Program-made: the position numbers and the translations under genes | In this document: one piece after another, positions 3,851 through 41,328 of the stretch | Layout of the letters: each line of letters opens with the position of its first letter | Position numbering within the stretch: the first letter of the stretch is position 1 | From: Candidatus Marinacidobacterales bacterium | GTDB lineage: Bacteria > Acidobacteriota > Vicinamibacteria > Marinacidobacterales > SMYC01 | DNA: 64,000 nucleotides | Direction of reading: 5' to 3' | NCBI GenBank assembly: GCA_965224085.1 | Contig: CBDCYI010000004.1 | Coordinates: forward strand, 512,001-576,000 | Notes under the pieces: model-generated | Database searches by the model: none | Seen by the model: only the letters and a program-made list of their open reading frames with translations | Told to the model about the DNA's origin: nothing

Positions 3851-4159
3851 CGCCACGCTTGCAGAACCCCATAAGCTCCACCTGCAGGGTATAGCTCCCT
3901 CCTTGGATCCCCAAGAGGGAGATTTGCGTGAGAACGGCTCCGTCACGCACCTGGCCTACGGCGGTCTCACGCTCGAGAAGCAACTCCTCATTCCGATTCG
4001 AAGGTGTCCAGCTTCACCCTACAGCGGAAGCGGTCTTTACCATCGGCGACAACGTCGAGGTTCTGACTCAGCTGGAGTGAGCGGACGGCGCCCATCGTCT
4101 CCGGATCGAGCTCCTTTCCGATGGAACGTTCCTGCTCGCTCGAACGTGTCACGGGTCGG

Positions 4160-4470
4160 ACGACGAGGGTCGTGGAGAGAACACGCGAGATCGGTATCCG
4201 CATGGCGATCGGCGGCGCGCCGCGGGACATCGCGCGCGGCGAAGTGTCGCGCAACATGCGGCCCGTTCTCGTCGGGCTCGCGAGCGGACTCGTCGCGTCG
4301 TTCTTCGTGACGCGTTTGGCCTCGAGCTTTCTCTTGGCGTGAGCCCGTGGGACGGCGTGAGCTTCTTGTCAGCGCTCGGGCTATTGCTCATCGCCGCGCT
4401 CGTCGCAAGCTACGTCCCTGCAACGCGGGCCGCCGCGCTGGACCCGGTGCAAGCGCTCCGCCGGGATTGA
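4160..4470 (+). pseudogene. C-terminal fragment of FtsX/MacB-type ABC permease, frameshifted
   Basis: RTREIGIRMAIGG...then frameshift near 4337 into VSPWDG...ASYVPATRAAALDPVQALRRD. Confidence 0.8.
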
Positions 4471-4658
4471 TGATGGATGCGCGGTCTACGGCGTAAAGTC
4501 GGTTGGATGAAAGACCGAGCCCGTCGCCAGCAATGCCTCGCCGGAAGGCGTTCAGAACCGACGCGTCGTCATCAAAACGAAAGCTGACGGCTCATGAAGT
4601 TGGGGAGCGCCGGACGGAAGGTTCGATAAAGTCCTCGTGCTCGTTTACACTTCCGTCC

Positions 4659-5762
4659 ATGATTACTGCCCGCGCCGATGTCATAGGCAGCTTGCTTCGC
4701 CCTCGTGAGCTTCTAAAAGCTCGGGAAGCCCGGGCCGCAGGCCAACTGTCTCAGATCGAGTTCAAAAAGATCGAAGATCGCGCTGTGGACGGGGCGGTAG
4801 CCCTTCAAGAGGGGCTCGGCCTCGAAGTCGTGACGGACGGTGAGATGCGCAGGAGCTCCTTCCAAAGCCAGATGACCGACGCCGTGTCGGGTTTCGCCGA
4901 GCATGGTCTGGACGCCTTTCTCTGGGGAAAGTGGCGGAGTAACGAGCTCGAAGAATGGAACGTCGAGAGGCCGGAGCTTGCCGTCATCAGAAAGCTCGAG
5001 CGTCGCCGTTCTCTCTCAGCGGAAGAGCTCGTCTATCTCAGCGCCCGTGCCAAGGCGACCCCGAAGATCACGCTGCCGAGCCCAACCCTCTTCATCAACT
5101 TCTGGTCGCCCGAAAGGTCGCGCCACGTCTACCCGACCCTTGACGCCTACTTGGCCGATGTCGTCGAAGTGTTACGCGAAGAAGTGGCGGAGCTCTCGCG
5201 CCTGGGCGCCACCTACATTCAACTGGACGCTCCGCACTACACCTCCCTGCTAAACGCCACGAACCGCGAATTCTACGAGGGCCACGGATGGACCATCGAG
5301 GGCTGGCTCGATCGTGGGATCGAGCTCGAGAATGCGGTGATGGAAGGCCTTCCGGAGTTGACCTTTGGCTTTCACCTCTGACGAGGCAACCAAAACAGCC
5401 GGTGGCTGTCCGAAGGAGACTACGAGCCGATCGCCCGAGCGTTGTTCTCGAGAATCCAGGCCGACCGACTTATTCTCGAATACGACGACGAGCGCTCGGG
5501 CTCTTTCGCACCTCTTGGCCACGTCAACGAGAAAGCCATCGTCGTTCTGGGATTGGTGGGGACCAAGACGCCTGCCACTCCTTCCACGGACGCGCTCGAA
5601 AGACGGATTCGAGAAGCCAGCAAAGTGTTACCCAAAGAGCGGCTCGCCGTTTCGACGCAATGCGGTTTCTCGACCTCGATCGTGGGAAATCGTATCTCCA
5701 TCGCTGACCAGGAAGCCAAGCTGCGCCGAGTCGTGGAAACGGCAAAAAGTATCTGGGGGTGA
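4659..5762 (+). CDS. Cobalamin-independent methionine synthase II family protein (single MetE C-terminal domain, YxjH-like) with in-frame UGA at codon 241; probable selenocysteine
   Basis: DVIGSLLRP, VTDGEMRR, KITLPSP, YIQLDAP, FHL-[TGA 5379-5381]-RGN, LEYDDERSG, LGLVGTK, STQCGF, all in one frame; 367 aa. Confidence 0.9.
5379..5433 (+). promoter_or_regulatory. Putative bacterial SECIS element
   Basis: UGA, then 19 nt to the apical loop; stem ACAGCC(5395-5400)/GGCTGT(5404-5409) with GGU loop; possible lower stem CGAGGC/GCCGATCG. Confidence 0.65.
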
Positions 5763-5781: not shown

Positions 5782-6291
5782 TCACTCGAGCTCGAGGGGC
5801 TCGCTTTGGGAGGCGGGCGCGGGCACGATGTCTGGATGGCCGTCGATGATGCGGGCGCAAGTGTTCCAGCGCAGCACTGCATCATCTTTGCCCTCGGGGC
5901 TGAGTTTCTGCGCTTTCTCGTAGTGATCCATCGCCTCACCGAGTCCCTCATAGGCGAGGTGCCCGCAGCCCGGAATCCCTTTGTCATACTGGGACTTCGC
6001 GCGGCGCTCCGCGATGAGACCAGCGTAATATTCTTTCTCGTAGTCGCTCGTAAGCGACTTGGCTAGCTCGCGCGATTCACGGACTCGCTGCCCGAGCCCG
6101 CGTGCAAATTGGTCGGTGAGCGCAAGAAGAAGCGTTGCTGTGGCTAGCTGGTGGCCCGGGTCTACTTCGAGCACGTCTCGGCAAATGCTCTCTGCTTCCA
6201 AAGGCTCGTTCAACGCGCGATACCAAACCGCTTTCTCGAGTGCCGAGTCGATGGCGTTTTCGGAAATCGACTTGAGCTCGAATTTCTTCAA
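5782..6291 (-). CDS. TPR-like hypothetical protein, last gene of the frd operon
   Basis: Helical repeats (AESICRDVLEVDPGHQLA, AMDHYEKAQKLSP); TTG start overlaps the frdD stop. Confidence 0.75.
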   Translation of the reverse strand: MKKFELKSISENAIDSALEKAVWYRALNEPLEAESICRDVLEVDPGHQLATATLLLALTDQFARGLGQRVRESRELAKSLTSDYEKEYYAGLIAERRAKSQYDKGIPGCGHLAYEGLGEAMDHYEKAQKLSPEGKDDAVLRWNTCARIIDGHPDIVPAPASQSEPLELE

Positions 6292-6638
6292 GAGAAATTC
6301 CAGAGAAAAAACGCTGCCGCGACGGTTCCGGTGAGAGCACTGCCGTAACAGACAAGGACGATCGGAACGTGCAAGTGCTTCAACTTCAATCCGTCATACA
6401 GAGTGTAGCGGAAGCGATGCGCCCCGTGGAACAAGGGGAGCGAGATCAGAACGAAGAGATATAGCCGCGCTAAAGGATGGCTTAACAAGCTCACTACAGA
6501 ATCGTAACCCGGAATGTCGATCCATCCCAACGGGATGAGGAGCCCGGTTACGAGCACGTGTAGAGGGAAAAGTAGCGCGGCAACCGTGCCTCCGGCACTG
6601 AAGAGTAACCAAAGAAGGGGTGTCATTTTCTTTAGCAT
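6288..6638 (-). CDS. frdD: Fumarate reductase membrane anchor subunit D
   Basis: WLLFSAGG, LPLFHGAHR; three TM helices; operon position. Confidence 0.88.
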   Translation of the reverse strand: MLKKMTPLLWLLFSAGGTVAALLFPLHVLVTGLLIPLGWIDIPGYDSVVSLLSHPLARLYLFVLISLPLFHGAHRFRYTLYDGLKLKHLHVPIVLVCYGSALTGTVAAAFFLWNFS

Positions 6639-6640
6639 GG

Positions 6641-7057
6641 CTACCTTACGAGCCAGAACCACGCCACGACGGCGGAGACAACGAGCCAACCGATATAGTT
6701 CGACACGATGATCAAGAGATCGGGAACGCGTTTCCCCGAGAGACGAACTTCCATCGCCTTGGGGGCCAGATGAAACCACGTCTGCGCGTGAAACAAGACG
6801 GCGACGAAGATCAGAACGTTGAGTGCTACGGCGAGAGGAGACGACATCCACGTCTCGAAACGGGCGTAAGCTTCGGGCCCGTTCGCGAGAGAGCGGACCT
6901 GCCACAAAGTCAAGAGAGAGAAAATCGCGACGGGCACGCTCGTCAGCTCGCGCAGAACGAACTTCATGTAGCGCCAGCGCGAAAGCCACCACCAGACAGA
7001 CACGGAACGCCGATACCATTTCGGGTGATACAGCGTGTAGCGCGCCTCACTCGTCAT
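6641..7057 (-). CDS. frdC: Fumarate reductase membrane anchor subunit C
   Basis: WWW...[26 protein letters not shown]. Confidence 0.9.
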
Positions 7058-7794
7058 TTCGAGGCCCAGGGGAGAATGGTCTTGAACCAATTCGCCGCTC
7101 CCGTCAGTTTGTAGCGCTGTATCGCGCCGGCGGGGTCGACATCCTTGGGGCAGACTTCCGAGCATTCGCCGACGAACGTACACTGCCACATGCCATCATC
7201 CTGCGATAGAATCGAAAGACGCTCCGAAGCGCCTTCGTCGCGCGAGTCCATGTTGTAGCGCTGGGCGAGGGCGGTAGCCGCCGGGCCGATGAAGCTCGGC
7301 TCGAGCCCGATCACCGGACAGGCGGAATAGCACAGAAGACAGTTGATACACATGCTGTAGCGCTTATAGGCGTCGAGCTCGTCTGGGCTCTGCCGGTACT
7401 CTCCTTCAGAGAGAGGTTTTTCCTCTTCGCGGACGATCCACGGTTTCACTTTCTTGAGCTTCGTCATGAACGACGTGATGTCCACCACGAGGTCGCGGAC
7501 CACCGGGAAGTAGCGCAGGGGCTCGATCCGAACCGGGCCGGGCGCGTACTGACTCAGAAACGCCGCGCACGTGAGCGTGGGCTCGCCGTTCACCATCATC
7601 CCGCAGCTGCCGCACACGCCCATCCGGCACGACCACCGGTGCGAGAGCGAGCCATCGAGCGTATCTTTGATGTAGTTGATCGCATCGAGGATGGCCCAAT
7701 CGTCGCGGAGCGGTACCTGGTAGTCCTGGACAGTGGGCTCCGATTCCTGCTCCGGCCGATAGCGGCTGACGCTTACGGTGATGGTATCGGCCAT
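7054..7794 (-). CDS. frdB: Fumarate reductase iron-sulfur subunit
   Basis: [35 protein letters not shown]. Confidence 0.95.
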
Positions 7795-40168: not shown

Positions 40169-40622
40169 TCACGCGAGCGCGGCCGCTACAGCAGGCGGCA
40201 AGAGTTCCACTACATCGCCTTCGATCCTCAGCGTGAGCGCGCTGTGTCCGTCGTGGTCGGTGACGCCGCGGTTGATCACCACATAGGGCGTACCGCGCGC
40301 CGCGGCCGCGAGCGGGAATCCCGCGGCCGGATAGACCGATAGCGTCGAGCCGAGTGCTACGACGAGGTCCGCCCCCCCAGCGCTCTCTGTCGCCCGATGT
40401 AGATCTTCCTGCCGTAGGTTCTGGCCAAAGCTAATCGTCGCGGGCTTCAAGTAGCCTCCACAACCACAATCTGGAGCCACCCGAGTCTCGGCGAACGTCT
40501 TCATGTGTGCATCGGGATCGGTAAGCTCGTGACAGCTCATGCACTCGATCGCCCCGTTCGTCCCGTGGATCTCGACGAGCGTTTCGGCGGACGTGCCCGC
40601 GCGCGTGTGCAGGCCGTCGACG
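40169..40622 (-). pseudogene. Sir2/CobB NAD-dependent deacylase, 5' deleted
   Basis: VDGLH, EIHGT, CMSC...CGC, LKPATISFGQ, GSTLSVYPAA, INRG. Confidence 0.88.
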
Positions 40623-41082
40623 TCGGTTCTCTCTTGCGCCCAGAGGCTCTTCACAACGCTCGGGCCAAATATGCGGCGGGCGAGATTTCACACGACGATC
40701 TTCGCGCGGTGGAAGACGAGAGCATCCGCGGCGCGGTCGCGATGTAGGAAGAGCTCGGATTCCAGGGCGTCACGGATGGCGAGCACCGCCGCACGATGTT
40801 CCATACCGATTTCTTGAAGCGCTTCGAAGGGGTAGCCGTGCGCGGCGGTTTGCCCGTGAAGTTCAAGAGCAAGACCAAAGTCATGGAGTTCTCGCCGCCC
40901 CGGCTCGAGGTCACCGGAAAACTGAAGCGCGCCAAGGGCGTCGCGACGGAGGAGTTCGCGTTCCTGAGCTCCGTGACCCGCCGAACAGCAAAGCTCTCTA
41001 TCCCGTCGCCGACGATGCTGCACTTTCGTGGTGGCCGCAAAGGCGTCGACGAAAACGCCTATCCGGAGATGGAACCGTTTTT
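40620..41082 (+). pseudogene. Second MetE-family (YxjH-like) gene remnant with TAG at 40745 and 3' truncation
   Basis: VGSLLRP...AM*EELG..VTDGEHRR...KLSIPSPTMLHFRGGR. Confidence 0.85.
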
Positions 41083-41328
41083 TATGAGAGACGATCAGCA
41101 GCACGTCCTTCGTCGGATTCACGTTCGTGATCGGCACGGCCGACGGTGAGCTCTTTCGGATCACGACAACGATCGATTCCGGGAGCGTGGCATCACGCTG
41201 ATGCTTCTCCAGGGATTTCTTCTGCTCGCCGACGGCCCGCTCGAGTGGAAAGGCGCCTGGGAGAGCTCGAAGCGCTACCGGCAACATATTCCCGACTTCG
41301 GAACCTGTGTTAGCATCGTGCGAGTGAC

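Follow-up and report, generated by a model that had tools for sequence, protein, structure and literature searches.

In Escherichia coli MetE, the zinc ligands are H641, C643, E665, and C726, and homocysteine is bound by S433, E484, and D599 (PMC7857596). MesA to MesD are single-barrel relatives of this enzyme, of ~386 amino acids (aa) or fewer, in which the zinc and homocysteine residues are conserved; where PMC7857596 treats these four proteins, it describes them without selenocysteine (Sec). Sec in place of a metal-coordinating Cys is known from FdhA (Mo/W-Se) and the [NiFeSe] hydrogenases (Ni-Se), for which Cys-form homologues coexist (PMC13188914, in its treatment of these enzymes), and the selenoneine genes senA, senB, and senC have been described as a cluster (10.1101/2022.04.13.486033). 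Here, we analyzed a stretch of 64,000 nucleotides from a Candidatus Marinacidobacterales bacterium (assembly GCA_965224085.1, contig CBDCYI010000004.1, positions 512,001 to 576,000; hereafter the window), in which a MetE-family gene at 4659-5762 carries an in-frame UGA at codon 241. We conclude that this gene genuinely encodes a selenoprotein and that it represents a new family within the MetE superfamily. We consider it very likely that it is intact, that Sec occupies the position of a zinc-ligand Cys, and that the UGA is decoded through SelB/tRNA-Sec and a hairpin with a GGU loop. A first-pass annotation of the window had proposed a selenoprotein, and the conserved TGA, the Cys homologues, selB and tRNA-Sec, and the bias and loop position of the hairpin all speak in favor of that proposal. 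From the same evidence, together with purifying selection, we infer that selenium is inserted at codon 241.

The Cys forms of the type represented by the structure 1YPX have the same length as the window protein, the same single (beta/alpha)8-type PF01717 domain, up to 67% identity, and the motifs H-x-C-R-G-N, L-E-Y-D, and Q-C-G-F in common with it, but the window protein differs by having Sec for the first Cys ligand and a hairpin resembling a Sec insertion sequence (SECIS) inside the coding sequence (CDS). With MetE it shares the catalytic-domain family, the zinc-ligand pattern, and the Ser/Glu/Asp positions that bind homocysteine. Unlike MetE, it is without the N-terminal folate-binding barrel, which makes methyl-tetrahydrofolate-Glu3 an improbable methyl donor. 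MesD, despite its similar build, is distant from the window protein (E = 6.4e-14 for its structure 3RPD versus 2.7e-64 for 1YPX). We also searched the 95%-complete genome for MesX (PF08908) and did not find it, a weak negative since the control of this search matched nothing either; these two results do not support a MesD/MesX assignment. In contrast to FdhA and the [NiFeSe] hydrogenases, the predicted metal of the window enzyme is zinc, at a non-redox alkyl-transfer site. To our knowledge, no natural enzyme with a catalytic zinc-selenocysteinate has been described.

In a mechanical list of open reading frames (ORFs), the Sec-form gene is split into 4503..5381 and 5442..5762. The first-pass annotation had read both halves as one frame separated by a single TGA in the context FHL-TGA-RGN, and translation agrees with this; its further statement that the gene has no other lesion holds as well, as the frame of 367 codons is without a second internal stop and without a frameshift. 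The gene's own terminator, at 5760-5762, is also a TGA, and the standard genetic code therefore applies to it. Orthologues share both termini with the window gene, from the M-I-T start to the W-G-stop end.

We compared codon 241 across several genome samples. Among 61 related genomes, in which the Sec orthologues represent four genera and three family codes (f1, f2, and f8), the TGA was at the identical codon in 10 of 10 TGA-bearing orthologues (62-100% identity), and all 14 full-length TGA-free homologues had Cys at the Sec position. A phylum sample of 401 genomes gave 11 matches at E ≤ 1e-60, 3 of them with TGA. A scan with one genome per species confirmed 573 relatives; in the best 80 of these, for which the codon was tallied, it was TGA in 30, TGC in 43, and TGT in 7, so that 50 of the 80 encode Cys. 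Once duplicates were removed, 37 distinct loci with Sec and 52 close ones with Cys were left for comparison. By record labels, the Sec forms span at least seven phyla, with hosts in the Acidobacteriota, Candidatus Poribacteria, Methylomirabilota, Latescibacterota, and Binatota, in Myxococcota-labelled 'Deltaproteobacteria' metagenome-assembled genomes (MAGs), in one Bacteroidota-labelled MAG, and in others. A DNA pattern consisting of the UGA and the conserved hairpin matched at least 119 metagenome contigs, and in all 80 that were examined, the pattern lay in frame within MetE-like genes of 52-70% identity. In a collection of 5.8 billion proteins, the 120 best near-length relatives all had Cys and none had U, with a top identity of 67%; the same-genus orthologues, which are 89-93% identical, were not among these 120.

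The codons 3′ of the UGA evolve under purifying selection. In each of the 16 pairs, the ratio of nonsynonymous to synonymous substitution rates (dN/dS, NG86) fell within 0.06-0.29 for this part of the gene and within 0.05-0.15 for the part 5′ of the UGA. In a 12-sequence clade alignment, residues 242-255 are nearly invariant, and the R-G-N-Q-x-S-R-W-L segment right after the UGA, which lies upstream of the first possible restart codon at 5442, is invariant or nearly so. The first-pass annotation had asked for independent homologues with TGA at this codon and selection on both sides of it; the 37 loci and 16 pairs provide both. It had also raised the possibility that reads would show TGC. Contigs of runs from three studies, one of which may be the assembly's source, show no alternative letter at 5379-5381 (contigs of run X10 cover 4665-5040 only). 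Short contigs of runs X2 and X3, at the much greater depth of 160-480, match only 5350-5389 around the UGA with 2-3 differences and are probably from homologues of other, more abundant organisms in the same samples. Extra stops were seen in two orthologues: a TAG at a conserved Trp in the 93%-identical same-genus orthologue of genome G002 (L025/L059), and a second stop in a Poribacteria orthologue (L069). These could represent local decay or assembly errors.

Bacterial SECIS elements have a G-leading (often GU) apical loop ~16-37 nt downstream of the UGA. The first-pass annotation had described a 6-bp hairpin with its loop 19 nt after the UGA, and this hairpin was located as listed in Table 1. 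When the U of the UGA is counted as nucleotide 1, the stem shared by the family pairs nucleotides 18-22 with 26-30 (5 bp) and encloses a loop at 23-25. The loop reads GGU in 35 of 37 Sec forms and GUU in the other 2, versus GCU in 39, GGU in 6, GUU in 5, and GAU in 2 of the 52 Cys forms. The Arg codon that supplies it is CGG in 34/37 Sec forms, while Cys forms have CGG in 6/52 and CGC in 39/52. All five pairs together with a GGU loop, which the earlier annotation had suggested comparing between TGA and Cys homologues, are kept in 34 of 37 Sec forms versus 4 of 52 Cys forms. The outermost pair, 18-30, joins two third-codon positions; it is paired in every Sec form (34 C-G, 3 G-C) and in 34 of 52 Cys forms. 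Across 35 distinct rows, 174 of 175 cells pair, and the covariation score was 0.134 versus 0.076 for shuffles, none of 500 of which reached it; slid controls were all ≤0.020. In the same genome, the SECIS of FdhA has an 8-bp stem and a GUU loop at nucleotides 23-25, the same position as the loop of the window hairpin. A codon-invariance scan gave a mild rise over the SECIS (0.29-0.40 versus 0.12 gene-wide), which we did not use as main evidence.

The genome of the window encodes the machinery for Sec insertion. We searched for selA, selB, selC, and selD, as the first-pass annotation had advised, and found all four above their cutoffs: selA (550 bits) and selB (365 bits) exceed curated cutoffs, tRNA-Sec (selC) scores 74 bits against a cutoff of 47 and is called SeC(tca) by ARAGORN, and the SelD domain scores 277-280 bits. 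A canonical Sec-containing FdhA with one TGA is also present (1339 bits). selB was found in 9 of 9 further Sec-form genomes tested. It was found as well in 4 of 5 Cys-form genomes and in the genome of the Cys form L103, and it is therefore necessary but not discriminating. We note that SelD (L018:1402-3627, minus strand, G000:C5) is a fusion protein that carries a pyridine nucleotide-disulfide oxidoreductase domain at its N terminus (TIGR03169, 382 bits). In addition, a molybdopterin-oxidoreductase-like gene (L164, G000:C4:1100993-1101556) has an in-frame TGA in the context C-N-R-T-U-H-A-P and a hairpin whose GGUCU loop lies at nucleotides 22-26, and is probably another selenoprotein.

We then placed the protein among known families. 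PF01717 (Meth_synt_2, the MetE catalytic domain in Pfam) matches residues 8-341 with 75.1 bits (cutoff 21). Two NCBIfam models for single-domain 'methionine synthase' families scored below their cutoffs (NF005085, 231.2 bits against 313; NF004875, 217 bits against 576), as did TIGR01371 for the two-barrel MetE proper (49.2 bits against 929.95); the protein has one domain and 367 aa. No dedicated model for the Sec-form family was found in NCBIfam release 20. The nearest solved structure is 1YPX from Listeria, titled 'putative vitamin-B12 independent methionine synthase family protein', with E = 6.5e-47 from the single sequence and 2.7e-64 with a profile, whereas the MesD structure and the two-barrel MetE enzymes are much more remote (E ~1e-14). 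Within the MetE superfamily, the group nearest to the Sec-form protein by sequence is '1YPX / cobalamin-independent methionine synthase II'. U241 takes the position of the HxC Cys when aligned with 1YPX or fungal MetE, and C335 aligns to the C-terminal C-G; G10-S11, D60-G61-E62, and Q188-x-D190 align to the MetE motifs IGS, HGE, and IQxD. The first-pass annotation had found the remaining putative ligands H239, E274 (LEYD), and C335 (TQCGF) intact. In the clade alignment, all three are invariant, along with U/C241 and the GS, DGE, and QxD motifs, and the L-E-Y-D around E274 is also conserved in 1YPX. Sec and Cys forms are identical around the site apart from U/C (H-L-U/C-R-G-N-Q). These invariant ligands and identical surroundings suggest that both forms have the same metal site.

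Taken together, these data suggest the following mechanism. SelB and tRNA-Sec would decode UGA-241 as Sec, guided by the GGU-loop hairpin 19 nt downstream. The Sec would substitute for the first Cys of the His-x-Cys...Glu...Cys zinc site, which gives Zn(His)(Sec)(Glu)(Cys) as the predicted active site. The residues with which MetE holds the amino and carboxyl groups of its homocysteine substrate are conserved. The most likely reaction is therefore a methyl transfer, activated by zinc, to an amino acid that resembles homocysteine and offers a thiol or selenol as acceptor; this putative substrate is assigned on sequence grounds.

Table 1. Coordinates of the Sec-form gene and its features in the window.
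Feature	Position	Strand	Description
Sec-form MetE-family CDS	4659..5762	+	367 codons and TGA stop; single-barrel PF01717; Sec at codon 241
In-frame UGA (U241)	5379..5381	+	counterpart of the zinc-ligand Cys in H-x-C; context F-H-L-U-R-G-N
SECIS-like hairpin ACAGCC-GGT-GGCTGT	5395..5409	+	6 bp; conserved 5-bp core, 5396-5400 with 5404-5408
Apical loop GGU	5401-5403	+	19 nt between UGA and loop
His239 codon	5373..5375	+	predicted Zn ligand, the H of H-x-U; falls on the HxC His (1YPX, MetE)
Glu274 codon	5478..5480	+	L-E-Y-D motif; predicted third Zn ligand
Cys335 codon	5661..5663	+	predicted fourth Zn ligand, in Q-C-G-F; falls on C-G in 1YPX and MetE

We further examined the genes around the 89 loci (37 Sec, 52 Cys). 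A senA/senB or selD/senC gene lies within 3 kb of 16 of the 37 Sec loci versus 1 of the 52 Cys loci; among loci with at least 1.5 kb of downstream flank, a sen gene is nearby in 13 of 24 Sec and 1 of 42 Cys loci. In eight loci senA is directly downstream, and the four that were scanned with NF041186 scored 518-540 bits (cutoff 420). In Poribacteria the order is gene-senC-senB, with 360 bits for selD/senC (TIGR00476, cutoff 125) and 396 bits for senB (TIGR04348, cutoff 300), and one operon there also has an OpuAC-type betaine ABC transporter upstream. SenA and SenB were above cutoff in 10 of 10 Sec-form genomes of the 61-genome sample, versus 24 of 51 (SenA) and 25 of 51 (SenB) of the others. 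The sen-linked loci belong to essentially two clades, namely the Poribacteria and a clade of eight rows, seven of them Sec forms with senA directly downstream and one the Cys form L103. The genome of the window has both senA and senB, each distant from the Sec-form gene. In part of its range the Sec-form gene adjoins the sen genes, and it co-occurs with them in the 10 sampled genomes; it is not among the three genes by which 10.1101/2022.04.13.486033 defines the cluster in the part that lists them, and many sen clusters are without it. In one genus, for example, 16 genomes have senA and 15 of these have senB, all without the Sec-form gene. In the 80 examined metagenome contigs the usual neighbors are a TauE/SafE exporter (31), an isochorismatase-like protein (12), and threonine synthase (8), and senA adjoins the gene in just 2; sen linkage as a general rule was rejected on this sample. 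The linkage may have one of three causes: methionine/SAM recycling for hercynine synthesis, which would take three methyl groups per molecule; a common reliance on, or regulation by, the supply of selenium; or a substrate specific to selenium.

Two further observations concern the sen genes. In a same-class genome (G055), a frameshifted MetE-like remnant (L043, C1:224065-224355) lies ~2 kb from senB (C1:221151-222083). In-frame TGA codons were seen in a SenA match (G016:C2:1214434-1215657) and in a partial SenB match (G006:C16:126065-126667); these could be pseudogenes or further Sec candidates.

Several observations weigh against the reading of the window gene as a hairpin-guided selenoprotein with Sec at a zinc site. 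The hairpin stem is short (5-6 bp), and its folding energy of -7.9 kcal/mol is unexceptional (z = +0.43), as 125 of 200 shuffles fold as well or better; support for the hairpin comes from conservation, and its stability gives none. The stem also forms in 33 of 52 Cys forms because the conserved S-R-W-L residues largely dictate four of its five pairs, two Sec forms carry GUU in place of GGU, and Rfam returned zero matches for 5200-5600, even with E values as high as 1 allowed. L103 and L064, the nearest Cys sisters of Sec forms, retain the full stem and the GGU loop; their hairpins may be fossil SECIS elements from a recent Sec-to-Cys conversion. The tree requires at least seven Sec/Cys changes, just two of which are forced by well-supported branches, and many of the 37 Sec loci are therefore not independent. 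A tree-controlled test of TGA against the GGU loop, based on independent pairs, had two usable pairs on supported branches, too few for statistical power, and gave p ~1. At the zinc site, U241 is a putative ligand by alignment only, and E274 was equated with Glu665 of MetE through the L-E-Y-D motif, in a stretch that HMMER did not cleanly align to MetE. A role as methionine synthase would be redundant because the genome has a full MetH (1649 bits); no further PF01717 gene was found in this genome. Finally, sen linkage is absent from the window's own clade, and senA adjoins the gene in 2 of the 38 metagenome contigs with enough flank.

These points, and the decayed genes in the window, could be taken to favor other explanations. 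The first-pass annotation had itself cautioned that a chance TGC-to-TGA mutation was possible, as the window holds many pseudogenes; the remnant of a paralogue at ~40505-41149 as well as the extra TAG in the G002 orthologue would fit a pseudogene in a genome with many decaying genes. The chance of this is negligible in our estimate: the TGA is shared by 37 genome loci and 80 of 80 metagenome contigs, downstream dN/dS is well below 1, and the frame has no other lesion, so that the recurrent TGA and the downstream constraint refute a pseudogene and exclude the chance mutation. Readthrough or recoding of the UGA with an amino acid different from Sec (for example Cys or Trp through near-cognate decoding), or a gene that yields two separate polypeptides, would suit the weak energy of the hairpin, but the TGA works as a stop within the same gene, selB is present in all 15 Sec-form genomes tested, the window's own included, the nearly invariant R-G-N-Q-x-S-R-W-L precedes the first restart codon, and the loop position and G-U signature agree with the FdhA SECIS of the same genome; we hold either version to be very improbable. 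It is slightly easier to imagine, and still unlikely, that Sec-241 is a catalytic nucleophile or redox residue, through a transient Se-methyl or Se-Se species, with the metal lost or changed and Sec not a zinc ligand. Among the prokaryotic selenoproteins catalogued in section 7 of PMC13188914, Sec is mostly redox or nucleophilic; against this, H239, E274, and C335 are as invariant in the Sec clade as in the Cys forms.

The alternative that deserves most attention concerns function, namely that the Sec-form enzyme is a selenium-specific accessory of selenoneine metabolism and does not serve as a methionine synthase in general. Candidate reactions would be the methylation of a selenol, for example in selenohomocysteine or in the conversion of selenoneine to Se-methylselenoneine, or another processing of selenium compounds that feed SenC. 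The excess of nearby sen genes at Sec over Cys loci would agree with this, as would the scores of the SenA, SenB, and SelD neighbors, which exceed NCBIfam equivalog cutoffs, the two gene orders (gene-senA and gene-senC-senB) with the betaine transporter in one operon, the presence of SenA and SenB in every Sec-form genome of the 61-genome sample, and the gene remnant 2 kb from senB in G055. We nevertheless lean against it and regard it as tentative, because the sen-linked loci fall in essentially two clades, adjacency to senA is rare in the metagenome contigs, the window's own genome carries senA and senB at a distance from the gene, one genus has sen genes in 16 genomes that are all without it, and the homocysteine-type binding residues suit an alpha-amino acid better than the betaine selenoneine. 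The preferred reading is that of a selenoprotein with a predicted zinc-bound Sec acting on a homocysteine-like substrate.

The window gene is flanked by apparent remnants of a permease gene on one side and, on the other, by fumarate-reductase C/D genes of the opposite strand; these surroundings are functionally uninformative. At 4121-4470 (plus strand), two short ORFs in different frames resemble, as judged by eye, the C-terminal end of an ABC-transporter permease and may represent a frameshifted remnant just upstream of the Sec-form gene. Subunits D (PF02313) and C (PF02300) of fumarate reductase are encoded at 6291-7189 (minus strand), and an ORF of 169 aa at 5785-6291 (minus strand) matches no Pfam family. 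Further along the window, a MetE-like stretch at 40505-41149 (plus strand) is 36% identical to residues 6-165 of the selenoprotein, contains a frameshift and a TAG, and has no counterpart of the C-terminal half. It has the appearance of a decaying paralogue of the Sec-form gene.

The first-pass annotation had remarked that MetE-fold proteins are not classic prokaryotic selenoproteins. This agrees with Table 1 of the review by Zhang et al. 2026, which has 119 prokaryotic selenoprotein families and subfamilies and no entry for PF01717, MetE, or methionine synthase in that table (PMC13188914); term searches of the review for these names likewise gave no hit, and a term search of the main text of the deep-Sep paper (PMC12013277) returned no MetE-type selenoprotein. 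We found no prior report of a Sec-form MetE-like family in the literature; supplementary tables could still list candidates. The finding adds a widespread family, in at least seven phyla and at least 119 metagenome contigs, to the prokaryotic selenoproteome. Gene callers currently split its Sec-form genes into two pieces, and the Cys forms go under the annotation methionine synthase. Since all 80 examined matches were true family members, the pattern of a UGA, 19 nt, and a GGU hairpin can be used for annotation repair.

If Sec is indeed a ligand of a non-redox catalytic zinc, this would be new chemistry. MetE-type enzymes are slow and oxidation-sensitive, and the pairs of Sec and Cys enzymes would let the tuning of zinc-thiolate alkylation by a selenolate be tested directly. 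The stronger proposal, that a catalytic zinc-selenocysteinate occurs here for the first time in a natural enzyme family and that this family is in part a dedicated selenol methyltransferase of the selenoneine pathway rather than a back-up methionine synthase, is one to which we give about one chance in a few; its products would then be, for example, Se-methylselenoneine or selenomethionine. The repeated placement of the gene beside senA/B/C ties the selenoprotein branch of selenium metabolism to its small-molecule branch, and makes the Sec-form gene a testable candidate for an unassigned step or a support function in selenium small-molecule metabolism.

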